DNA of 11,368 nucleotides from a virus (IMGVR_UViG_2547132269_000002:1-11368), one strand, 5' to 3'. Positions 1-11,368 are shown, counted from the stretch's first letter. The notes: generated by a model not told the origin, from the sequence alone. Numbers and translations are program-made.

Positions 1-265
1 GCGATAATTTTACTCATCATCCTTCACATCAGGCCCTGTAGACAGAGTGGTGATTACTTCTGGAGTGGATTCAGATTAAACATCTCATTGCTAATGTTTG
101 AGGTTAAGCATCTGGCGCGCGGTAAGCGGTTGCGTTGAAATAAGAGCCAGTCCATTACAAATTTCATCAAGCGTTATTGGTAAGGGTGATAATTATGAGA
201 TACCTCTTCACTAAGAGTAATCTTAAGGGTAATGTGTAACCTCACTTTTTAATACGGAGGTTGTA

Positions 266-490
266 ATGTTAGAGAATTATTTCCCTTCAGGAATAGGTGC
301 TCAGCCTGTAACTCAAGCTCAAAAACAGAGGGTTATAGCTGTTCAAGCTGCCCTTGAATTAGTTAAGGCCTCACTTTCTTCTGCAGGTGGTCAGGCTACA
401 AGTGCAAAATTTGAACAGGAATTAAAAGCAGCTATTGGCTTAATTGAACCATTAGCCGATGCCATTCAGAAAGCAATCAGCAAAGAATAA
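266..490 (+). CDS. Small hypothetical protein (74 aa), AT-rich moron-like gene, predicted mostly helical, no signal peptide or TM segment
   Basis: ATG at 266 preceded by GGAGG at 256-260 (5-nt spacer); TAA stop at 488-490. Composition clearly more AT-rich than downstream phage genes. Followed ~105 nt downstream by an intrinsic terminator. Function not recognised. Confidence 0.6.
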   Translation: MLENYFPSGIGAQPVTQAQKQRVIAVQAALELVKASLSSAGGQATSAKFEQELKAAIGLIEPLADAIQKAISKE

Positions 491-595
491 ATAAACCACC
501 TGCATTTTGTTTTATTTCCCAACTAACGGGTGTAATAATCTTAATGTTTCCCGTGGATAGATAAGACAATAAGTATTCACCTTCAAGATATAAAC

Positions 596-622
596 GGGCC
601 TCGCTAATGCGAGGCTTTTTTA
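596..622 (+). terminator. Rho-independent terminator (stem gcctcgc / gcgaggc, loop taat, then TTTTTT)
   Basis: Perfect 7-bp inverted repeat at 598-604 and 609-615, immediately followed by a 6-T run at 616-621. Orientation fits termination of + strand transcription from the small gene at 266..490. Confidence 0.6.
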
Positions 623-656
623 CGCATTGTAAGCGTGCACCAAAGAGGGGATATAA

Positions 657-1007
657 ATGCCACCACGAACCCCAAAAGCCTGCCGTTTTCGCGGTTGCCG
701 CAATACCACTACAGATACGTCAGGCTATTGCGAAAGCCACAAAAGCGAGGGCTGGAAGCAATACAAGCCAGGACAATCCCGTCATCAGCGCGGTTATGGT
801 TCGAAGTGGGACAGTATCCGCGCGGGTGTCCTGAAGCGTGACAAAGGCCTGTGTCAGTTATGTCTGCGTGCTGGTGTGGTGCGTGAGGCGAAAACCGTTG
901 ACCACATCATCCCTAAAGCGCATGGCGGCACTGATGCCGACTGTAATCTGCAGAGTCTGTGCTGGCCGTGTCATAAGGCGAAGACGGCCCGTGAACGACT
1001 TAAGTGA
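657..1007 (+). CDS. HNH homing-type endonuclease, phage packaging-associated (116 aa)
   Basis: ATG at 657 with AGAGGGG upstream. Cys pairs CRFRGC and CQLC...CWPC (zinc-finger-like). HNH core DHIIPKAHGG...NLQSLCWPCHKAKT with His83 codon at 903-905. Sits directly upstream of the small and large terminase genes, as in HK97-like cos phages. Confidence 0.9.
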   Translation: MPPRTPKACRFRGCRNTTTDTSGYCESHKSEGWKQYKPGQSRHQRGYGSKWDSIRAGVLKRDKGLCQLCLRAGVVREAKTVDHIIPKAHGGTDADCNLQSLCWPCHKAKTARERLK

Positions 1008-1033
1008 TAATAATTCTCAACTGTCTGAGGGGA

Positions 1034-1093
1034 GGGGCGGGTCAAATCTCTGTGACCTGACGTCTTCCGGACTGCCCGCCCCATCGTTTTTTT
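1034..1093 (+). other. GC-rich inverted repeat (ggggcggg ... cccgcccc) with internal palindromes, followed by TTTTTTT; candidate terminator or cos/packaging-recognition region
   Basis: Arms at 1034-1041 and 1075-1082 are exact reverse complements separated by a 33-nt loop containing the palindromes gacgtc (1059-1064) and tccgga (1066-1071). A 7-T run at 1087-1093 lies 4 nt after the stem. Located in the HNH to TerS intergenic gap. Confidence 0.35.
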
Positions 1094-1132
1094 ATACCCG
1101 CGAAAAATGAAATTTAACCAGGAGTGCCGCAT

Positions 1133-1627
1133 ATGGCTGGAACGGCGGGGCGTTCCGGGCGTCGCCCCAAGCCAACGGCGCGCAAGGCGCTGGCCGGAAA
1201 CCCCGGAAAGCGAGCCCTGAACAAAGATGAACCCGTTTTTACGCCCATCAAAGGTGTTGAGCCACCGGAGTGGTTCGCTGAAGAAGAGCTCCCTCTCGCC
1301 ACGATCATGTGGCAACTGACAACCAAAGAACTCTGCGGTCAGGGCCTGCTGTGCGTGACTGACCTCGCAGTGCTTGAGCGGTGGTGCGTAGCCTATGAGT
1401 TCTGGCGACGTGCTGTGAAAAATATTGCCAGACAGGGCAACACCATCACCGGTGCAATGGGCGGCATGGTCAAAAATCCGGAGCTGACCGCCAAAAAAGA
1501 ACAGGAGTCCGAGATGAGCAGTACGGGGGCAATGCTCGGACTCGACCCCAGCAGCCGCCAGCGTCTGATTGGCCTGGCGGGGCAGAAGAAAGCCACTAAC
1601 CCGTTTCTGAAAATTATCGAATCATGA
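1133..1627 (+). CDS. Terminase small subunit, P27 family (about 164 aa from ATG 1133)
   Basis: ATG at 1133 preceded by AGGAG at 1120-1124; the in-frame GTG at 1124 used by the ORF track has no spacing for an RBS. Basic N-terminus GRSGRRPKP, then [15 protein letters not shown] and PPEW motifs typical of P27-type small terminases. Stop TGA at 1625-1627 overlaps the ATG of the next gene. Confidence 0.85.
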
Positions 1628-3357
1628 GCCGGAAATCTTACCCCAACGTAAATGCTGCCAATCAGTATGCCCGGGATGTCGTGCGCGGAAAGATTGTGGC
1701 CTGCCAGTTTGTGATTCAGGCCTGCCAGCGCCATCTTGATGACCTGATGGCGGAAAAAAGTAAGTCGTTTCGTTACCGCTTCGACAAGGACCTGGCTGAA
1801 CGGGCCGCCAAATTTATTCAGCTGTTGCCGCACACCAAGGGTGAGTGGGCATTCAAGAGGATGCCCATCACGCTGGAGCCGTGGCTGCTCTTTGTGATCT
1901 GCTGCGCGTTTGGCTGGGTCAATAAAGGCTCCCGGCTGCGCCGCTTCCGGGAGGTGTATACCGAAATCCCCCGTAAGAACGGCAAATCGGCAATCTCTGC
2001 CGGTGTCGCCCTGTATTGTTTTGCCTGTGATAACGAGTTCGGCGCGGAAGTGTATTCCGGTGCCACGACGGAGAAACAGGCATGGGAAGTCTTTCGTCCG
2101 GCAAGACTGATGTGTAAACGCACACCCATGCTGACGGAAGCGTTCGGGATTGAGGTTAACGCCTCAAACATGAATCGTCCGGAGGATGGCGCGCGGTTTG
2201 AACCGCTGATCGGTAACCCCGGTGATGGTTCATCACCCCACTGTGCGGTGGTGGATGAATATCACGAGCACGCCACCGATGCGCTTTACACCACGATGCT
2301 TACCGGGATGGGGGCGCGACGTCAGCCACTGATGTGGGCCATTACTACTGCCGGGTACAACATTGAGGGGCCGTGCTACGACAAGCGACGGGAAGTTATC
2401 GAGATGCTCAACGGGTCGGTACCCAACGATGAACTGTTCGGGATCATCTATACCGTTGACGAAGGCGATGACTGGACCGACCCGCAGGTGCTGGAAAAAG
2501 CTAACCCGAATATTGGCGTGTCGGTTTATCGCGAATTTTTGTTAAGTCAGCAGCAGCGTGCGAAAAATAACGCCCGTCTGGCAAACGTCTTTAAAACAAA
2601 ACACCTCAATATCTGGGTGTCGGCGCGTTCGGCGTATTTCAACCTGGTGAGCTGGCAGAGCTGCGAGGATAAATCACTGACCCTTGAGCAGTTCGAGGGG
2701 CAGCTGTGCATTCTGGCCTTTGACCTGGCGCGTAAGCTGGATATGAACAGCATGGCGCGACTTTATACCCGCGAGATTGACGGTAAAACGCATTACTACA
2801 GTGTGGCCCCGCGTTTCTGGGTACCGTATGACACGGTGTACAGCGTCGAGAAAAATGAAGATCGACGGACAGCCGAACGCTTTCAGAAATGGGTGGAAAT
2901 GGGCGTTCTGACCGTTACCGATGGTGCGGAGGTGGATTATCGCTACATCCTCGAGGAGGCCAAAGCGGCGAACAAAATCAGCCCGGTCAGTGAGTCACCC
3001 ATCGACCCCTTCGGGGCGACCGGGTTGTCACATGACCTTGCTGATGAAGACCTGAACCCCATCACTATCATTCAGAACTACACCAACATGTCCGACCCGA
3101 TGAAAGAGCTGGAAGCGGCAATTGAATCGGGGCGCTTTCATCATGATGGCAATTCCATCATGACCTGGTGTATCGGCAACGTGGTCGGCAAAACCATTCC
3201 GGGTAACGATGATGTGGTGAAGCCCGTCAAAGAGCAGGCGGAAAACAAAATCGATGGTGCAGTTGCGCTGATTATGGCGGTTGGCAGAGCCATGCTGTAC
3301 GAGAAAGAAGACACGCTGTCTGACCACATTGAGTCCTATGGGATCCGCTCGCTTTAA
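1624..3357 (+). CDS. Terminase large subunit (577 aa), ATPase plus nuclease
   Basis: Walker A-like P-loop IPRKNGKS at nt 1969-1989. Walker B-like VVDEYHE at nt 2248-2268. Length and position immediately after TerS, with ATGA overlap. Intact ORF. Confidence 0.95.
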
Positions 3358-3368
3358 CTGAGGTAATT

Positions 3369-3551
3369 ATGATCATGCTGATTCTCGCGCCTTTGGTGGG
3401 CGTGCTGGGGGCGCTTTTGCTGGCGTATGGTGCCTGGCTGATTTATCCCCCGGCGGGGTTTGTTGTTGCTGGGGCGTTGTGCCTGTTCTGGTCGTGGCTG
3501 GTGGCGCGATATCTCGACCGTACACAGTCGTCTGTCGGCGGAGGTAAATAG
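3369..3551 (+). CDS. Small hydrophobic protein (60 aa) with two predicted transmembrane helices, function unknown
   Basis: ATG at 3369 with GAGG 7 nt upstream. Two hydrophobic stretches ([26 protein letters not shown] and [16 protein letters not shown]) separated by PPAG. TAG stop at 3549-3551 overlaps the GTG start of the next ORF. Confidence 0.6.
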
Positions 3552-4909
3552 TGTTCTTTTCGGGATTATTTCAACGAAAAAGTGACGCACCGGTGACCAC
3601 GCCAGCAGAGCTGGCGGATGCTATCGGGTTGTCCTACGACACCTATACCGGAAAGCAGATCAGCAGCCAGCGGGCCATGCGACTGACGGCGGTTTTTTCC
3701 TGTGTCAGGGTGCTGGCGGAGTCGGTCGGGATGTTGCCCTGCAACCTGTATCACCTGAACGGCAGCCTGAAGCAGAGAGCCACTGGCGAACGTCTGCATA
3801 AGCTGATCTCCACGCATCCCAATGGCTATATGACGCCGCAGGAGTTCTGGGAGCTGGTGGTCACCTGTCTGTGCCTGCGGGGAAACTTTTACGCCTACAT
3901 TGAGCTGAAACGTCCGGCAGGTGGTGCGCAAAATAAACTGGCCACCGAGCATAAAGAAGCGTTTGTGGGCTTCCTGCGTAAAGGCCGTGAAGATGGTCTG
4001 CGCGATCTGGAGCGCAAGGCATTACAGGTGGGCACCGATGAAGACGGTGGCTATGCCGTGCCGGAAGCGCTGGATCGCAACATTCTGACCTTGCTGAAAG
4101 ATGAAGTGGTGATGCGCCAGGAAGCCGCGGTGATCACCGTTGGCGGTTCCGACTACAAAAAACTGGTGAATCTGGGCGGCACGGCTTCCGGATGGGGTGG
4201 CGAGACTGACGCGCGCTCCCAGACTGCCACCTCCAGACTGGGGCTGATTGAACCTTTCATGGGGGAAATCTACGGTAACCCGCAGGCCACCCAGAAAATG
4301 CTGGATGATGCCTTTTTCAACGTGGAGGCCTGGATCAACAGCGAGCTGGCAACCGAATTTGCCGAACAGGAAGAAATTGCCTTTACCACCGGCGATGGTA
4401 CCAAGAAGCCGAAAGGGTTCCTGGCGTATGAATCCACTGATGAAACCGATAAGGTCCGGGCGTTCGGCAAACTTCAGCATATTGTATCCGGCGACGCGAC
4501 TGCGGTGACCGCAGACGCCATTATCAAACTGATTTACACGCTGCGAAAGGCACACCGCACCGGCGCGAAGTTCATGATGAACAACAACAGCCTGTTTGCC
4601 ATCCGTTTGCTGAAAGACAGCGAGGGTAACTATCTGTGGCGTCCGGGGCTGGAACTGGGGCAGCCGTCCTCTCTGGCGGGTTACGGTATCGCTGAAAACG
4701 AACAGATGCCGGATATCGCCGCTGATGCGAAAGCCATTGCATTTGGTAACTTCAAACGGGGTTACACCATCGTTGACCGTATCGGCACCCGCATTCTGCG
4801 TGACCCGTACACCAATAAACCGTTTGTCGGTTTTTATACAACCAAGCGCACCGGCGGGATGCTGGTCGATTCGCAGGCCATCAAACTGCTGAAGATTGCT
4901 GCGGCGTAA
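3551..4909 (+). CDS. Chimeric ORF: portal protein N-terminal fragment (~125 aa) fused in frame to an HK97-fold major capsid protein (~325 aa); probable deletion product
   Basis: GTG start at 3551 with GGAGG at 3540-3544. Residues ~40-120 carry the portal N-terminal signature (AMRLTAVFSCVRVLAESVGMLP ... HPNGYMTPQEFWEL ... LRGNFYAYIE). From about nt 3910-3950 the sequence switches to capsid-type motifs (EAFVGFLRKG, GGYAVPE, TGDGTKKPKGFL, LRDPYTNKPFVGFYTTKRTGG, AIKLLKIAAA). No prohead protease or scaffold gene between them. Confidence 0.8.
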   Translation: MFFSGLFQRKSDAPVTTPAELADAIGLSYDTYTGKQISSQRAMRLTAVFSCVRVLAESVGMLPCNLYHLNGSLKQRATGERLHKLISTHPNGYMTPQEFWELVVTCLCLRGNFYAYIELKRPAGGAQNKLATEHKEAFVGFLRKGREDGLRDLERKALQVGTDEDGGYAVPEALDRNILTLLKDEVVMRQEAAVITVGGSDYKKLVNLGGTASGWGGETDARSQTATSRLGLIEPFMGEIYGNPQATQKMLDDAFFNVEAWINSELATEFAEQEEIAFTTGDGTKKPKGFLAYESTDETDKVRAFGKLQHIVSGDATAVTADAIIKLIYTLRKAHRTGAKFMMNNNSLFAIRLLKDSEGNYLWRPGLELGQPSSLAGYGIAENEQMPDIAADAKAIAFGNFKRGYTIVDRIGTRILRDPYTNKPFVGFYTTKRTGGMLVDSQAIKLLKIAAA

Positions 4910-4916
4910 TCATTCA

Positions 4917-4936
4917 GGGGCGCGGAACCGCGCCCC
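4917..4936 (+). terminator. GC-rich hairpin just after the capsid stop (ggggcgcgg aa ccgcgcccc), weak T-tract; possible partial terminator or mRNA-stabilising stem-loop
   Basis: 9-bp perfect inverted repeat at 4917-4925 and 4928-4936 with a 2-nt loop, 8 nt after the TAA at 4907-4909. The downstream run ctgttctg is not a canonical U-tract. Confidence 0.4.
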
Positions 4937-4958
4937 CTGTTCTGACGGGTGAAGAATC

Positions 4959-5159
4959 ATGATCCTGAAACAAGATCTGAAATGGTCACCGGACGGTATG
5001 CGTGTTGAGGTCATTCGGGCCGGTGAGTATGACGACGGGGCGCTTCCTGCCCGGGTGCAGGAGATTGCACTTCAGGCCGGGTTAGCAGAGCGCGGAACCA
5101 GTGCAAAAAGCAGTAAAGCGGCAAAAGAGAAAAAAGCCACGACCAGTAAAGAGGGCTGA
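4959..5159 (+). CDS. Hypothetical small protein (66 aa) with Lys/Ser-rich C-terminal tail
   Basis: ATG at 4959, weak RBS. Sits between the capsid and head-tail connector genes. C-terminus SAKSSKAAKEKKATTSKEG. Stop 2 nt before the next gene start. No family recognised. Confidence 0.5.
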   Translation: MILKQDLKWSPDGMRVEVIRAGEYDDGALPARVQEIALQAGLAERGTSAKSSKAAKEKKATTSKEG

Positions 5160-5161
5160 GT

Positions 5162-5485
5162 ATGCTTCTGACAATGGAAGAGATTAAAGCCCAACTCCGG
5201 CTGGATGAGGATTTCGATGCTGATGACCGCCATCTGCAACTGCTGGCCTGTGCGGCGCAAAAGCGGACGGAAACGTATCTGAACCGGAAGCTCTATGCAC
5301 CGGATGAATCCATTCCGGACAGCGATCCGGACGGGCTGCACCTGCCGGATGATATTCGTCTGGGGATGCTGATGCTTATCAGCCATTTTTACGAAAACCG
5401 CTCGTCGGTTACGGAAGTGGAAAAACTCGACATGCCGCAGAGTTTTGGCTGGCTTGTCGGCCCGTACAGGTACTTTCCGCAATGA
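5162..5485 (+). CDS. Head-tail connector protein, gp6-like (107 aa)
   Basis: ATG at 5162 with AAGAGGG upstream. N-terminal pattern LTMEEIKAQLRLDEDFDADD...LQLLACAA resembles gp6-like connector/DNA-packaging proteins. Follows the capsid gene. ATGA overlap with the next gene. Confidence 0.75.
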   Translation: MLLTMEEIKAQLRLDEDFDADDRHLQLLACAAQKRTETYLNRKLYAPDESIPDSDPDGLHLPDDIRLGMLMLISHFYENRSSVTEVEKLDMPQSFGWLVGPYRYFPQ

Positions 5486-5892
5486 AAATTCGTCAGGCGC
5501 AGATCAGCGCAACCTACATTCTGCCGGACCCCGGTGAACTGAATAAACGCGTCCTGATCCGCCTGCGGGTGGATATGCCCGCGGATAACTTTGGCGTGGA
5601 GCCTCAATACCCGGTTACGTTCTGGACATGGGCGAAGGTTATCCAGACCAGTGCCACCACCTGGCAGGAAACCGCGCAGACCGGGGACGCCATCACCCAT
5701 TACATCACCATTCGTTACCGCCGGGGGATCACCGCTGATTATGAGGTGGTCTGTGATGACAGTGTGTACCGGGTGAAACGTCAGCGCGATCTGAACGGGG
5801 CGCGGCGCTTTCTGCTGCTGGAGTGTACGGAGCTGGGCGAATTTACGCAGAGTCACGGAGGCAGCAATGGCGACTCCCTTTTTTCACGTTGA
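5482..5892 (+). CDS. Head-tail joining (head closure / adaptor) protein (136 aa)
   Basis: Pattern RVLIRLRV ... FWTWAKVIQ ... AQTGDAITHYITIRYRRGI ... YRV ... LLECTE fits the phage head-tail joining family. Position after the gp6-like gene. Confidence 0.75.
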   Translation: MKIRQAQISATYILPDPGELNKRVLIRLRVDMPADNFGVEPQYPVTFWTWAKVIQTSATTWQETAQTGDAITHYITIRYRRGITADYEVVCDDSVYRVKRQRDLNGARRFLLLECTELGEFTQSHGGSNGDSLFSR

Positions 5893-6373
5893 TGTTCAGC
5901 AGCCCGCGGAGATGCGCTTTAACCGCGCCCGTGTCCGGCGGGCGTTTGTCACGATTGGTCAGCGTCATATGCGTGATGCCCGTCGGCTGGTGATGCGCCG
6001 TGCGCGGTCGGCACCGGGTGAAAACCCCGGTTATCAGACCGGACGCTTGGCTCGTTCGATTGGTTACATGGTGCCGGGAGCCAGTAAAAAGCGAGTCGGT
6101 TTTATGACACGCATTGCCCCTAACCAGCGCAACGGGAGGGGGAACCGGATGATCTCTGGTGACTTCTATCCGGCGTTTCTGTTTTTTGGTGTCCGGGGAG
6201 GAGCAAAACGTCGTCACAGTCATCATCGTGGTGCATCCGGTGGCAGCGGCTGGCGACTGGCTCCACGTAATAACTTCATGGTGGAAACGCTTGAAAAGAA
6301 CCGCAGCTGGACACGCTATTTTCTGGCGCGGGAATTACGTAAATCACTGAAGCCGGAGCGACGACGCAGATGA
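5867..6373 (+). CDS. Neck / tail-completion protein, HK97 gp10-like by pattern (168 aa), Arg-rich C-terminus
   Basis: ATG at 5867 with GGAGG at 5857-5861; overlaps the previous gene by 26 nt. Assignment rests on gene order and loose motif resemblance (GYQTGRLARSI, FYPAFLFFG). Confidence 0.5.
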   Translation: MATPFFHVDVQQPAEMRFNRARVRRAFVTIGQRHMRDARRLVMRRARSAPGENPGYQTGRLARSIGYMVPGASKKRVGFMTRIAPNQRNGRGNRMISGDFYPAFLFFGVRGGAKRRHSHHRGASGGSGWRLAPRNNFMVETLEKNRSWTRYFLARELRKSLKPERRRR

Positions 6374-6930
6374 AACTGACGCCTGTTATTGCTGCGCTGC
6401 GTGCCCGCTGCCCGTATTTTGAAAACCGGGTGGCAGGTGCGGCACAGTTCAAAAATCTGCCGGAGGTCGGAAAGCTGAAACTCCCGGCGGCGTATGTGGT
6501 ACCGGGTGATGACTCTCCTGGAGAAAACAAAAGCCAGACCGACTACTGGCAGGAGCTGAAAGAGGGCTTCTCCGTGGTTGTCATACTGAGTAACGGGCGT
6601 GATGAGCGCGGTCAGTTTGCCTCGTATGATGTGGTGGACGATGTCCGGCAGATGCTCTTTAAGGCCCTGCTGAGCTGGAACCCGGAAGCGTGCGGTAACC
6701 CGATTACCTATGACGGCGGCACGCTGCTGGATCTGAATCGTCATGAGCTGATTTATCAGTTCGATTTTTCGGTCATCAGCGAGCTGACCGAAGACGATAC
6801 CCGCCAGCAGGATGATCTGAACAGTCTGGATGAACTGCAAACGCTGGCGATTGATGTTGATTATCTCGAGCCCGGTAACGGGCCTGACGGCGATATCGAA
6901 CATCACACCGAAATAACCCTTCCTTCCTGA
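6370..6930 (+). CDS. Mu gp36/gp37-like tail-associated protein (186 aa) with acidic C-terminal region
   Basis: ATGA overlap with the upstream gene. Lies just upstream of the gp38-like gene and the tail sheath start, as in Mu-like tail modules. Family assignment is by position and loose resemblance. Confidence 0.5.
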   Translation: MKLTPVIAALRARCPYFENRVAGAAQFKNLPEVGKLKLPAAYVVPGDDSPGENKSQTDYWQELKEGFSVVVILSNGRDERGQFASYDVVDDVRQMLFKALLSWNPEACGNPITYDGGTLLDLNRHELIYQFDFSVISELTEDDTRQQDDLNSLDELQTLAIDVDYLEPGNGPDGDIEHHTEITLPS

Positions 6931-6938
6931 GGATCCTC

Positions 6939-7109
6939 ATGTTTGTCAAACCTGTTAAAGGGCGGTCAGTGCCTGACCCTGCCCGCGGCGACCTTTTGCC
7001 CGCCGAAGGGCGAAATGTTGACGAGAACAACTACTGGCTGCGCCGTGAAGCAGCGGGTGATATCCGGCGCGTGAATAAAAAGGTGAACACCGATGACGAT
7101 AAGCTTTAA
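6939..7109 (+). CDS. Small Mu gp38-like protein (56 aa, DUF2635-like)
   Basis: Not in the ORF track (below length cutoff); found by reading the sequence. ATG at 6939 with GAGGA at 6929-6933; TAA stop at 7107-7109. Protein MFVKPVKGRSVPDPARGDLLPAEGRNVDENNYWLRREAAGDIRRVNKKVNTDDDKL. Lies directly upstream of the sheath start codon. Confidence 0.55.
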   Translation: MFVKPVKGRSVPDPARGDLLPAEGRNVDENNYWLRREAAGDIRRVNKKVNTDDDKL

Positions 7110-7224
7110 CACCATTCCGTCGAATACGCTGGTTCCGTTGTTTTATGCGGAAATGGATAACCAGGCGGCGAATAAACACCCGCGCAGAGCACTGGCTGGC
7201 CTTCCGTCACGCATCCGGCACTGA
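7093..7224 (+). pseudogene. Tail sheath gene, N-terminal fragment only (43 codons, ~27 sheath-like then out-of-context tail)
   Basis: ATG at 7093 with AAGGTG upstream. Translation MTISFNTIPSNTLVPLFYAEMDN matches the conserved N-terminus of Mu-type sheath proteins, but a TGA stop follows at 7222-7224. The ~450-aa sheath body is absent. Confidence 0.6.
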
Positions 7225-7574
7225 ACAATGCACCGGCGGTGAAAAGCACGGTTGACCTGCCAACGTGGGAAGAACTGACTGACATTCGCGACACACTGAA
7301 TACGGCAATTGATAAGGAGTTGTCCCGTACAACCAGTGATGCGCTGTTTCTGGCGCTGCGCCGGGTGAAAGCAGATCTGAATGCGGATATCAACACGCGC
7401 CTTGAACAGTCTGCACGGATCATTCAGCGCACGCCGGATGAGGTTTTACCCGCGCTGGTGCTGGCGGCGACCTGGTTTGATAACGCGGCGCGTGACGGGG
7501 ACATTATCCGGCGTAATGCCATTACGCATCCCGGCTTTGTGCCGGTGATCCCTCTGAAGGTGCCAGTGCAATGA
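7176..7574 (+). pseudogene. 3' remnant of the gene upstream of the baseplate hub (probably Mu gp43/N-like DNA circularisation protein); no ATG start or RBS
   Basis: Frame opens after the TAA at 7173-7175 and runs to the TGA at 7572-7574, which overlaps the ATG of the hub gene (caATGAac). First possible start is a GTG at 7239 with no RBS. 133 open codons against an expected ~400-500 aa for this gene. Confidence 0.5.
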
Positions 7575-8650
7575 ACGATAACGTCACGCTACGGGTAAAT
7601 GGCCGGGAGTGGAATGGCTGGACATCGGTGCGCATCGGTGCCGGTGTTGAACGACTGGCGCGGGATTTCAGTGTGGAGATCACTCGCCAGTGGCCGGGAG
7701 ATGAGGGTATCACCACGCTTCAGCCGCGCATTAAAAACGGTTCAAAAGTGGAAGTGCTGATTGGTGATGAGCTGGTGATCACCGGCTGGGTGGAGGCGAC
7801 TCCCGTTCGTTACGATGCCCGTTCGGTCAGCACCGGTATTGCCGGACGTAGTCTGACGGCTGACCTGATTGACTGTGCAGCCGAACCGACACAGTTTAAC
7901 GGACGCTCGCTGGTGCAGATTGCGCAGGCGCTTGCTGCGCCTTTCGGCATTGAGGTGGTGAACAGCGGTGCGCCGTCGGGTGTTATTCCTGATGTTCAGC
8001 CTGATCACGGTGAAACGGTGATTGAGGTAATCAACAAAATACTCGGTCAGCAGCAGGCGCTGGCTTACGACGACCCGTACGGCAGGCTGGTGATTGGCGG
8101 TATTGGCTCAACGCGGGCACATACCGCGCTGGTACTTGGGGAAAACATCCTTTCCTGTGATACGGAGAAGAGTATCCGGGAGCGGTTTTCTGTTTACCAG
8201 GTGGCGGGGCAGCGTGCCGGAAACGACGATGATTTCGGTGAGGCCACCACCACCGCGCTGCGGGCCCGCACAGAGGACGCATTTATTGCCCGTTACCGTC
8301 CGATGTATATCAGGCAGACAGGGCAGCCCACGGGGGCAGGCTGTATTGCGCGTGCTGACTTTGAAGCCCGACAACGGGCGGCGCGGACGGATGAAACCAC
8401 CTATGTGGTGCAGGGCTGGCGACAGGGTAACGGTACGCTGTGGCAGCCCAACCAGCGGGTGATTGTCTTCGATCCGGTCTGTGGTTTCGACAATACCGAA
8501 CTGCTTGTCTCGGAAGTCACGTTTACTCAGGACCAGAACGGCACCCTGACGGAAATCCGTGTCGGCCCGCCTGATGCTTATCTGCCTGAACCCGAAGCCC
8601 CCGGCGCGCGGGAAAAGAAAAAAGCCAGAGTACAGGAGGACCCGTTCTGA
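7571..8650 (+). CDS. Baseplate hub protein, Mu gpP (gp44)-like (359 aa)
   Basis: ATG at 7571 overlapping the upstream stop. Size and position match; N-terminal pattern LRVNGREWNGWTSVRIGAGVERLARDFSVEIT. Followed by the gp45-like and gp46-like genes in canonical order. Confidence 0.8.
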   Translation: MNDNVTLRVNGREWNGWTSVRIGAGVERLARDFSVEITRQWPGDEGITTLQPRIKNGSKVEVLIGDELVITGWVEATPVRYDARSVSTGIAGRSLTADLIDCAAEPTQFNGRSLVQIAQALAAPFGIEVVNSGAPSGVIPDVQPDHGETVIEVINKILGQQQALAYDDPYGRLVIGGIGSTRAHTALVLGENILSCDTEKSIRERFSVYQVAGQRAGNDDDFGEATTTALRARTEDAFIARYRPMYIRQTGQPTGAGCIARADFEARQRAARTDETTYVVQGWRQGNGTLWQPNQRVIVFDPVCGFDNTELLVSEVTFTQDQNGTLTEIRVGPPDAYLPEPEAPGAREKKKARVQEDPF

Positions 8651-9198
8651 TGAGGACGATTGAAGCCATGCAGCGACAACTTCTCGGCCTGATTGGGCGG
8701 GCAGTGGTGAAAAGCATCAGTGCCGCCACGAAATGTCAGACCGTGGATGTGTCCCTGATTGCCGGTGAATCCAAAGCCGGGGTTGAACATCTTGAACCCT
8801 ACGGTTTTACCGCAAGGGCAAACAGCGGTGCGGAAGCGGTGGTGTTGTTTCCGGATGGCGACCGTTCTCATGCGGTGGTTGTTACGGTGTCGGACCGGCG
8901 CTACCGCCTGAAAGGGCTGCAGACGGGTGAGGTGGCTGTCTATGACGATCAGGGGCAGTCCGTGACGCTGACCCGGGAGGGGATCGTGGTGGACGGTGCA
9001 GGTAAAACGATCACGTTTCACAATGCGCCTAAGGCACGTTTTGAAATGGACCTGGAGGTGACCGGACAGGTGAAAGACCTGTGCGACTCCGGCGGCACCG
9101 CCATGTCAGCGATGCGGCTTGCCTATAACGGGCATCGTCACAGAGAGAACGGTCAGGGCAGTAACACCGACAAACCTGATAAAGCGATGGAGGCATGA
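8650..9198 (+). CDS. Baseplate spike / assembly protein V, Mu gp45-like (182 aa)
   Basis: TGATG overlap with the hub gene. Pattern GLIGRAVV ... GESKAGVEHLEPYGFTA ... GEVAVYDDQGQSVTL typical of gpV-like spike proteins. Canonical position. Confidence 0.8.
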   Translation: MRTIEAMQRQLLGLIGRAVVKSISAATKCQTVDVSLIAGESKAGVEHLEPYGFTARANSGAEAVVLFPDGDRSHAVVVTVSDRRYRLKGLQTGEVAVYDDQGQSVTLTREGIVVDGAGKTITFHNAPKARFEMDLEVTGQVKDLCDSGGTAMSAMRLAYNGHRHRENGQGSNTDKPDKAMEA

Positions 9199-9623
9199 TG
9201 GAAGTGTGGCTGACGGTGAACGGTAAATGCACCTGCGCCAGCGCACCGCTGGATCCGCTGACCCGCGCCGTGGTGATTTCTCTGTTTACCTGGCGGCGGG
9301 CGGAGCCTGATGACAATGCCGACGTCCCGATGGGATGGTGGGGGGATACCTGGCCTGCGGTACAGAATGACCGTTACGGTTCCCGACTGTGGCTGCTTCA
9401 ACGCAGCAAACTGACCAATCAACTGGTGCAGACGGTAAGGGGGTATATCCGCGAATGCCTGCAATGGATGATTGATGACGGCGTGGTGTCCCGTATTGAT
9501 CTGGATATCCGCCGCACCGGGATTAATGAACTGGGTAACAGTATCACTCTCTGGCGTCGTGACGGACCGGTAATGATTTCTTTTGATGATCTGTGGAGTG
9601 CGATAACGCATGGCGGACAGTGA
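9195..9623 (+). CDS. Mu gp46-like baseplate protein (142 aa)
   Basis: ATGA overlap with the gp45-like gene. Size and position between the spike and J-like genes. Confidence 0.75.
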
Positions 9624-11061
9624 ATTTCAGCGCCCGACGCTGGCAGAAAATATCAGTATGCTCCGTAACGATTTATTCGCCAGGCTGGACGTCAGCGACA
9701 CGCTCCGGCGCATGGATGAAGACGTGCGGGCAAAGGTGTATGCGGCGGCGCTGCATACGGTTTACGGGTACATCGATTATCTGGCAATGAACATGCTGCC
9801 TGACCTGTGCGATGAGTCCTGGCTGGCGCGACATGCTGCGATGAAACGGTGTCCGCGCAAGGGGGCCACGGCTGCCAGCGGGTATATGCGCTGGGAAGGT
9901 GTCAGCGATGGCCTGAAGGTGACCGCCGGGAGTGTTATTCAGCGCGATGACCTGGTTCAGTACACGGCAACTGCCGATGCAACCAGCTCCGGTGGTGTCC
10001 TGCGCGTGCCGATCGCCTGCTCAAGTGCAGGCGCGGTCGGTAACGCTGACGACGGTACGTCATTAATCCTGGTCACGCCGGTTAATGGTCTGCCGTCTTC
10101 CGGCGTGGCAGATACCCTGACAGGTGGATTTGATACTGAAGAGCTGGAAACGTGGCGCGCCCGCGTCATTGAGCGGTATTACTGGACGCCTCAGGGCGGA
10201 GCTGACGGGGACTATGTCGTCTGGGCTAAAGAAGTGCCCGGCATTACCCGCGCATGGACATACCGTCACTGGATGGGAACGGGAACTGTCGGTGTGATGA
10301 TTGCCAGCAGTGACCTGATTAATCCCATTCCGGAAGAATCAACGGAAACGGCAGCAAGACAACATATCGGGCCACTGGCCCCGGTGGCAGGCTCTGATTT
10401 GTATGTGTTCAGGCCGGTGGCGCATAAAGTGGATTTTCATATCCGCGTGACGCCGGACACACCGGAAATACGGGCTGCCATTACCGCGGAGTTGCGTTCG
10501 TTCCTGCTGCGTGATGGTTATCCGCAGGGAGAACTGAAGGTATCGCGTATCAGTGAGGCGATTTCCGGTGCGGCACCGTCATTAACCCGTGTTCATCAGC
10601 GTGCGGATGCCCTGATGCGGGAGCTGGATCCGCGCACCACCACTGAACTGATAAACCGCTGGGAGCGTCTGTGCGGTCTGCCGGATGAATGTATTCCGGC
10701 GGGAACGCAGACCCTTCGCCAGCGTCAGCAACGGCTGGATGCGAAGGTTAACCTGGCGGGCGGCATCAACGAGGATTTTTATCTTGCACAGCTTGCTGCC
10801 CTGGGCAGACCAGATGCCACCATCACGCGATACGACAAAAGCACGTTCACCTGCTCATCGGCCTGTACTGACGCGGTGAATGCGCCAGAATGGCGGTATT
10901 GCTGGCAGGTCAACATGCCAACCACCACCAACACCACCTGGATGACATGTGGCGATCCCTGTGATTCCGCACTGCGTATCTGGGGTGACACCGTTGTCGA
11001 GTGTGTGCTTAACAAACTCTGCCCGTCGCATACCTACGTAATTTTTAAATATCCGGAGTAA
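9610..11061 (+). CDS. Baseplate J-like protein (Mu gp47-like, ~320 aa) continuous with a gp48 / P2 gpI-like tail protein domain (~160 aa) in one 483-aa ORF
   Basis: ATG at 9610; single uninterrupted frame to TAA at 11059-11061. The N-terminal ~320 aa look J-like. From about nt 10560-10620 ([24 protein letters not shown] ...) the sequence resembles the N-terminal region of gp48/DUF2313-type proteins, which are normally a separate downstream gene. Confidence 0.75.
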
Positions 11062-11064
11062 TCC

Positions 11065-11368
11065 ATGCATCGTATAGACACGAAAACCGCGCAGAAGGAT
11101 AAGTTCGGCGCGGGTAAGAACGGTTTTACCCGTGGTAACCCCCAGACCGGCACACCTGCCACCGATCTGGATGATGACTACTTTGACATGTTGCAGGAGG
11201 AGCTTTGCAGCGTGGTGGAGGCATCCGGTGCCAGTCTTGAGAAGACGCGGCACGACCAGCTGCTTACCGCGCTTCGTGCGCTGCTGTTAAGCCGCAAGAA
11301 TCCGTTTGGCGATATCAAATCGGATGGCACCGTGAAAACGGCTCTCGAAAACCTTGGTTTGGGAGAAG
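11065..11368 (+). CDS. Tail fiber protein, conserved N-terminal (baseplate-attachment) domain; 3' end lies beyond the window
   Basis: Not in the ORF track (open at window end). ATG at 11065 with GGAG at 11055-11058. Translation [67 protein letters not shown]..., an N-terminus I recognise from tail fibers of enterobacterial Mu/P2-like tail modules. Confidence 0.75.

Follow-up and report, generated by a model that had tools for sequence, protein, structure and literature searches.

At positions 9610 to 11061 of the viral DNA stretch IMGVR_UViG_2547132269_000002 (1-11368; all 11,368 nucleotides were analyzed and are referred to here as the window) lies an open reading frame (ORF) that joins the front of one phage baseplate protein, J, related to gp47 of phage Mu, to the back of another, YmfQ, which is related to Mu gp48. 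We hold this ORF, with high confidence, to be a deletion chimera, and in effect a pseudogene, within a decaying SfV/e14-like prophage that is most likely one of Escherichia albertii. The endpoints of the deletion lie in a short direct repeat of which one copy has been kept, and the same deletion recurs in other prophages.

The ORF list and the translation give a single frame on the plus strand, running from ATG to TAA and encoding 483 residues. In a Pfam search, Baseplate_J (PF04865) was found at residues 69-317, matched across the whole profile (positions 2-255 of 255; E=3.8e-52; 177.6 bits against a cut-off of 21.1), and Phage_Mu_Gp48 (PF10076) at residues 304-481 (profile positions 7-149 of 150; E=5.5e-25; 88.4 bits against a cut-off of 37.4, the intact YmfQ parent scoring 94.5). 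Both matches are far beyond chance. Protein mapping shows that the chimera consists of J residues 1-321 and YmfQ residues 33-194, i.e., 321 of 352 and 162 of 194 residues, respectively. Together with BLAST pieces against an intact relative, it assigns 9610-10572 to J (with J 322-352 lost) and 10573-11061, including the stop codon, to YmfQ. Aligned to Mu, the J part corresponds to residues 4-330 of 360 in gp47 (BW2; PDB 9KI1 chain H; E=6e-35) and the YmfQ part extends to residue 175 of gp48 (BW3). The losses, J 322-352 and YmfQ 1-27, correspond to the ~30 C-terminal residues of gp47 (331-360 fall outside the alignment) and to approximately the first 30 of gp48. An earlier note on this DNA, which had suggested both the domain search and the Mu alignment, was right about the single frame with two domains and about each part being slightly short, and its transition near 10560-10620 was approximately right, the actual junction being a repeat copy at 10557-10572.

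A full-length member of BW2 (Baseplate_J/Mu gp47/T4 gp6-like), at 352-360 residues, would have a complete C-terminal domain and be a separate chain with two copies per wedge; the J part of the chimera lacks the end of that domain and is covalently joined to the gp48-like part. In the case of BW3 (Phage_Mu_Gp48/YmfQ, DUF2313), the chimera has neither a start codon of its own for the YmfQ part nor the conserved N-terminal LLPxGxAW segment.

A deletion between two direct repeats

The missing DNA was mapped against L001, the intact prophage of E. coli NH-21. The window aligns to it in four gap-free BLAST pieces of 97-98% identity, 11,360 bp of the window corresponding to 18,279 bp of L001, and the segments missing from the window measure 1731, 5006 and 182 bp. 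In L001, J (16847-17905; 352 residues) and ymfQ (17896-18480; 194 residues) overlap by 10 nt, with the ymfQ frame at +2 relative to J. SfV orf19 and orf20, and the J and ymfQ genes annotated by the Prokaryotic Genome Annotation Pipeline (PGAP), are likewise separate. Every intact relative examined carries a pair of 16-bp direct repeats here, GGCGATTTCCGGTGCG in J and GGCGATTGCCGGTGCG in ymfQ, which begin at L001 17794 and 17976 and are identical at 15 of 16 positions. The window retains a single copy, GGCGATTTCCGGTGCG, at 10557-10572, and the BLAST pieces on either side of the gap overlap by exactly the 16 repeat bases. Two parental copies, one retained copy and a loss equal to the 182-bp spacing are the marks of a direct-repeat deletion. 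Throughout the 18.3-kb intact late region, this is the sole pair of 16-mers with at most one mismatch inside 500 bp.

The two copies also share codon phase, encoding AISGA in J and AIAGA in YmfQ, and therefore the loss of 182 bp (182 mod 3 = 2) cancels the frame offset and an in-frame product is forced. The YmfQ start codon and residues 1-27, with LLPPGPAW, are deleted, and the shared five-residue motif survives once. Three origins had been offered in the earlier note: a small in-frame deletion across the gene boundary, a natural fusion and a sequencing frameshift artefact. The first stands as a deletion but differs in detail, as the missing segment is not a multiple of three and cancels a +2 offset; the other two fail on the evidence given below.

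In the proposed mechanism, the two 16-bp copies would have misaligned; one copy and the 166 bp between the two were lost, and J residues 1-321 were joined in frame to YmfQ residues 33-194. Judging from established knowledge of E. coli deletions, the likely route would be replication slippage (slipped mispairing) or another RecA-independent short-homology event. In 1982, Albertini et al. reportedly described deletion hot spots at short direct repeats in lacI, and Lovett and colleagues are said to have worked on short-repeat deletions in E. coli. The present case shares with lacI-type deletions the repeat endpoints, the single copy kept, a length equal to the spacing and the recurrence of the identical event, with no difference in kind.

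The resemblance between the two proteins at this point extends beyond the AIxGA motif. J ~300-321 (window 10519-10572) and YmfQ ~11-32 (1565-1660 of the intact copy L017) both follow the pattern LL..P.G...AIxGA, which could be due to chance or could be a trace of shared wedge-subunit ancestry. The Pfam Gp48 match on the chimera begins inside the J-derived part, at residue 304. Such a start might suggest that J 304-326 replaces the lost YmfQ N-terminus, but it is treated here as a weak extension of the alignment.

Recurrence of the 182-bp deletion

Our set of full-length gp46-ymfQ regions comprised 112 copies, 14 of them fused and 98 intact. E. albertii, E. coli and Shigella flexneri all carry the 483-residue fusion, and the fused copies form five groups, with distances between groups of 29-53 single-nucleotide polymorphisms (SNPs) over ~1.86 kb. 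Two E. coli groups are nearly identical to intact alleles: L009-L011 lie 1-2 SNPs from an intact copy (strain FEX669) and 36-37 from the nearest other fused group, and for L012-L014 the corresponding distances are 1 and 36. The group to which the window belongs is 16-17 SNPs from its nearest intact allele and 29-30 from the nearest other fused group, the S. flexneri-type copy (L018) is 29 and 40 SNPs away, respectively, and the E. albertii P0001 group (L007/L008) is 29 SNPs from both. SNPs 8-25 nt from the junction match the intact sibling of each fused allele. The P0001 allele, moreover, keeps the ymfQ-type repeat (AIAGA), placing its crossover on the other side of the repeat mismatch. On the simplest reading of these sequences, the same deletion would have occurred independently at least four times. 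Because the identical deletion arose independently several times, the repeat pair marks a deletion hot spot of the SfV-like phage group.

Alternatively, the fusion could have arisen once and been passed on by recombination among prophages of E. albertii, E. coli and Shigella, a scenario that concerns only the history of the chimera and that we consider very unlikely. It would fit the one junction shared by all 483-residue alleles, the equidistance of the P0001 group from intact and fused alleles, and the mosaic, recombining nature of SfV-like prophages. However, the SNPs flanking the junction on either side are those of the respective intact sibling, with no shared donor patch visible, two fused groups lie 1-2 SNPs from intact alleles yet 36-37 from other fused groups, and one allele was resolved at a different point within the repeat.

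In three lineages (L007/L008, L010), the fused gene lies in an otherwise intact tail-gene cluster, and therefore the 182-bp deletion can be the first lesion. Complete-looking clusters around the fusion, with genes for sheath, tube, tape measure, DNA-circulation protein and gp44-46, are seen in E. albertii GCA_012092255.1 and E. coli GCA_009361835.1. The S. flexneri-type copy, L018 (IMGVR_UViG_2529292715_000010), appears to have further lesions; its gp45-like ORF at 1968-2378 encodes 136 residues, compared with 182 elsewhere.

The fused protein as a baseplate component

Database searches showed that the fused form is not the norm. Of the phage records, the 12 that reach at least 80% coverage all match the region in two pieces, with 2356 bp for 2174 bp of query. 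Among 5,426 complete E. coli genomes, 868 contain the intact J-side 38-mer and none contains either of the two fused-junction 38-mers (one per allele type), the junction k-mer of the fused form being AGTGARGCGATTKCCGGTGCGGCACC. In IMG/VR, the degenerate fused-junction pattern occurs in 1 contig, compared with at least 120 for the intact pattern. Neither exact nor degenerate fused-junction patterns matched any species-representative genome, and JGI metagenome contigs gave 0 matches to the fused junction. In the protein database, clusters of the canonical 352-residue J have up to 7,461 members, whereas most fused proteins form clusters of one; the window's own fused protein belongs to a cluster of 17 members, among which are fragments. 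A literature search on jayE/ymfQ yielded nothing about a J::YmfQ fusion.

Structural knowledge of Mu gives an idea of what such a protein would be able to do. The Mu wedge consists of one gp46, two gp47 conformers and one gp48, and in its core three-helix bundle, gp48 and the two gp47 chains come together through their N-terminal regions (PMC11915804); the baseplate structure PDB 9KI1 holds 12 gp47 and 6 gp48 chains. The chimera would supply the two as one chain, i.e., 1:1 rather than 2:1, and it lacks segments that are conserved and structured. For instance, across 33 homologues of 60-83% identity, 7 columns of the deleted J 322-352 are invariant, and in an AlphaFold2 model of the intact 352-residue J (mean predicted local distance difference test (pLDDT) score 77.6) this block forms strands at 326-331 and 342-351 with pLDDT values of 84-91. 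On the YmfQ side, LLPxGxAW is the best-conserved N-terminal stretch in the alignment of YmfQ 14-192 with Mu gp48 12-175. Because the C-terminal beta segment of J, in which three strands are predicted with confidence, and the N-terminus of YmfQ are lost and the two parts are tied 1:1 in place of the 2:1 ratio of a Mu-type wedge, structure and stoichiometry suggest that the chimera probably cannot build a wedge or baseplate. In the window its function is moot in any case, because this prophage has lost its sheath, tube, tape-measure, portal and protease genes as well.

These results bear directly on the idea of a native, functional single-chain J-gp48 wedge protein kept by selection as a 'Rosetta-stone' fusion, which we regard as extremely unlikely. 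The open frame and the two well-supported Pfam domains would be expected of such a protein, and the fused gene does occur in several species, sometimes in otherwise intact tail clusters, but the fused alleles are all tip variants of intact ones (in two cases 1-2 SNPs away), conserved and structured residues have been removed, a Mu wedge requires two gp47 to one gp48, and in the window the remaining tail and head genes have been deleted. A natural fusion as the native architecture, one of the earlier note's readings, is contradicted by the two separate genes in all 12 full-length phages and in the 868 E. coli genomes, with the fused form in 0 of 12 and 0 of 5,426. A native C-terminal extension of J, or relatives in which fusion is the norm, did not turn up. 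A native fusion should be conserved in diverged relatives and in viable phages; the listed proteins carrying both domains are all at least 75% identical to the query, and their junctions are heterogeneous.

A more elaborate proposal would be that a defective prophage has exapted the chimera as a dominant-negative baseplate subunit, which poisons the assembly of wedges by related phages, whether superinfecting or co-resident, and that this benefit explains the recurrence. We give it equally little credence. The frame is still open in several lineages, the J N-terminal helices that enter the wedge core bundle are retained, and the chimera arose independently several times; yet a promoter and terminator scan of 9000-11368 found nothing above shuffled expectation, i.e., no promoter-like site, and the lineages are shallow and rare, as neutral or deleterious lesions would be. 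In-frame chimeras are also over-recovered by a protein search, so their number is no evidence of selection, and other J chimeras with different junctions exist. Taken more broadly, a recurrent chimera that serves either as a dominant-negative wedge subunit or as a viable single-chain wedge variant, with recurrence due to selection beyond mutational bias, seems to us highly improbable.

An assembly or sequencing artefact, in which the 16-bp repeat was collapsed or the source contig carries a frameshift error, can be dismissed almost entirely: although the window is a short-read contig (ERR200287_311) with its junction on a repeat, the identical junction is shared by the finished chromosome CP030787.2 and more than 10 independent assemblies, which come from different projects and species, rather than being confined to one assembly or one technology, the loss is a clean 182 bp rather than a 1-2 nt indel, it is inherited alongside other nested deletions, and assembly k-mers are usually longer than 16 bp. 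The exact 483-residue protein is encoded in CP030787.2 and in three sequencing-run assemblies, one of which, ERR200287, is the window itself.

Care must nevertheless be taken with several points that weigh against a deletion chimera that recurs by mutational bias and has no function. Repeat pairs of this kind are held by 11.5% of first-order Markov-resampled 18-kb sequences, because of which the pair is treated as a chance feature, in phase by coincidence. The independence of the window's lineage rests on SNP distances of 17 (to the nearest intact allele in hand) and 30, and the window's own junction was judged from the assembled sequence. Recurrence of the same junction could in principle reflect selection and not mutational bias alone, and a phage with the fused gene is formally conceivable as viable, given the otherwise intact tail clusters of L007/L008 and L010.

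The window as a decaying prophage

The window is the late region of an SfV/e14-like prophage. It is 97-98% identical to the SfV-like phages (SfV, SfI, SfII, SfIV, SKA5, vB_EcoM-689R6 and -720R4) and to hundreds of E. coli prophages, and over 9195-11368 the nucleotide identity to these phages is 96.7-97.7%. Gene order is that of the SfV group, in which gp44-like, gp45-like and gp46-like genes are followed by J (the Mu gp47-like orf19 of SfV), the YmfQ-like gene (the Mu gp48-like orf20) and the tail fibre. In every phage of that group, however, J and the YmfQ-like gene are separate, in a region longer by 182 bp, and the window, unlike these phages, also lacks 1731 bp from portal to capsid and 5006 bp from sheath to DNA-circulation protein. 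The host is almost certainly E. albertii, because CP030787.2 carries the exact protein and the portal::capsid chimera described below is found in NCBI under E. albertii names only. CP030787.2 is the chromosome of E. albertii 2013C-4143, a human isolate from 2013 of sequence type ST7960 (identified through a paper).

Upstream of the chimera lie gp44-, gp45- and gp46-like baseplate genes. The gp46-like wedge gene (9195-9623, plus strand; Pfam GP46, E=6.4e-33) is intact and overlaps the start of the chimera, an order that agrees with orf18-orf19 of SfV. Downstream, the N-terminal part of a tail-fibre gene (11065-11368, plus strand), called as a gene at 11065-11367 in L006, is cut by the end of the window; relatives are annotated as stfP or tail fibre at this position. 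An e14-like invertible tail-fibre module, which comprises fibre and fibre-assembly genes in both orientations and a Pin-type resolvase/invertase, follows the chimera in L003 (11456-14233), L009 (7205-10031) and L012 (5189-8020). Such a module probably explains why the short-read contig ends within the tail-fibre gene. At the other end of the window, positions 1-750 have a GC content of 0.40-0.42, compared with 0.54-0.60 elsewhere. Small ORFs are found there at 266-490 and 607-834, and an HNH endonuclease ORF (657-1007) comes next, just upstream of the small terminase gene. The HNH-terminase arrangement is usual in HK97-like packaging modules. An Rfam scan of the whole window found no RNA family.

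The two larger deletions have left their own remnants. The loss of 1731 bp, which takes the whole prohead protease gene together with most of the portal gene and capsid codons 1-65, joins portal codon 117 in frame to capsid codon 66 (junction 3899|3900). The result is a plus-strand portal::major-capsid chimera of 452 residues at 3551-4909, as seen from Pfam and from BLAST breakpoints, with Phage_portal at residues 47-120 (profile positions 2-75 of 321) and a full Phage_capsid domain. The loss of 5006 bp, mapped by BLAST to 7174|7175, extends from codon 28 of the sheath gene to codon 310 of the DNA-circulation gene, so that the genes for sheath, tube, chaperone and tape measure are gone, and is out of frame; a 43-residue ORF (7093-7224) and a 111-residue ORF (7239-7574) remain around its junction (7093-7574). 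Comparison with the intact relative revealed no microhomology at either the 1731-bp or the 5006-bp junction. By our own arithmetic, at least two of three deletions would be in frame by chance in ~26% of cases. The 5006-bp deletion is common to all four contigs that encode the exact 483-residue protein, and the losses are nested: L003 and L004 (CP030787.2 and SRR8355577) lack only the 5006 and 182 bp and keep the portal, protease and capsid genes, whereas L005 and L006 (SRR3574322 and ERR200287) lack all three segments. The 1731-bp deletion is read as the latest of the three, because it is absent from L003 and present in L005 and L006.

The cryptic prophage e14 of E. coli K-12 (ymfR, beeE, jayE, ymfQ, stfP) belongs to the same phage family. 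PGAP gives the e14 names ymfR, ymfQ and stfP to genes of the intact relatives, and K-12 carries the intact J-side 38-mer. We take e14 to be a remnant eroded by internal deletions, as the window prophage is, in which jayE is presumably truncated at its 5' end by a portal-to-J deletion and ymfQ remains separate; in the window, J is truncated at its 3' end and fused to ymfQ. Three other J::YmfQ junctions are J311|Y66 in Salmonella, J237|Y13 and a J217 reading into ymfQ, and J is also found in TerL::J, gp44::J, J::DNA-circulation (DNA_circ_N) and J::fibre (Gp53-like_C) chimeras. J-gene chimeras are represented among the protein hits by P0007, P0009, P0011, P0022, P0029, P0045, P0080, P0082, P0088, P0098, P0101 and P0105. 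Because so many exist with different junctions, the SfV/e14-like family is a frequent deletion substrate, and its erosion in E. coli, Shigella and Salmonella proceeds through a wide variety of internal deletions.

The chimera is thus a product of ordinary prophage decay and most likely a dead relic. Its proteins are already catalogued in NCBI and the deletion mechanism is textbook. The finding carries little biological weight beyond being a clean, well-resolved case of prophage erosion through deletion; its only mildly notable point is the independent recurrence of one and the same 182-bp deletion at a pair of in-phase 16-bp repeats. There are some practical consequences. In the output of annotation pipelines, the chimera appears as 'baseplate J/gp47 family protein' or 'DUF2313 domain-containing protein' and the portal::capsid product as 'phage major capsid protein', and therefore domain-based calls of prophage completeness can be misled. 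The three nested deletions form an ordered lineage marker for an E. albertii clone, and the in-phase 16-bp repeat pair could be used to report the rates of short-homology deletion in lysogens.

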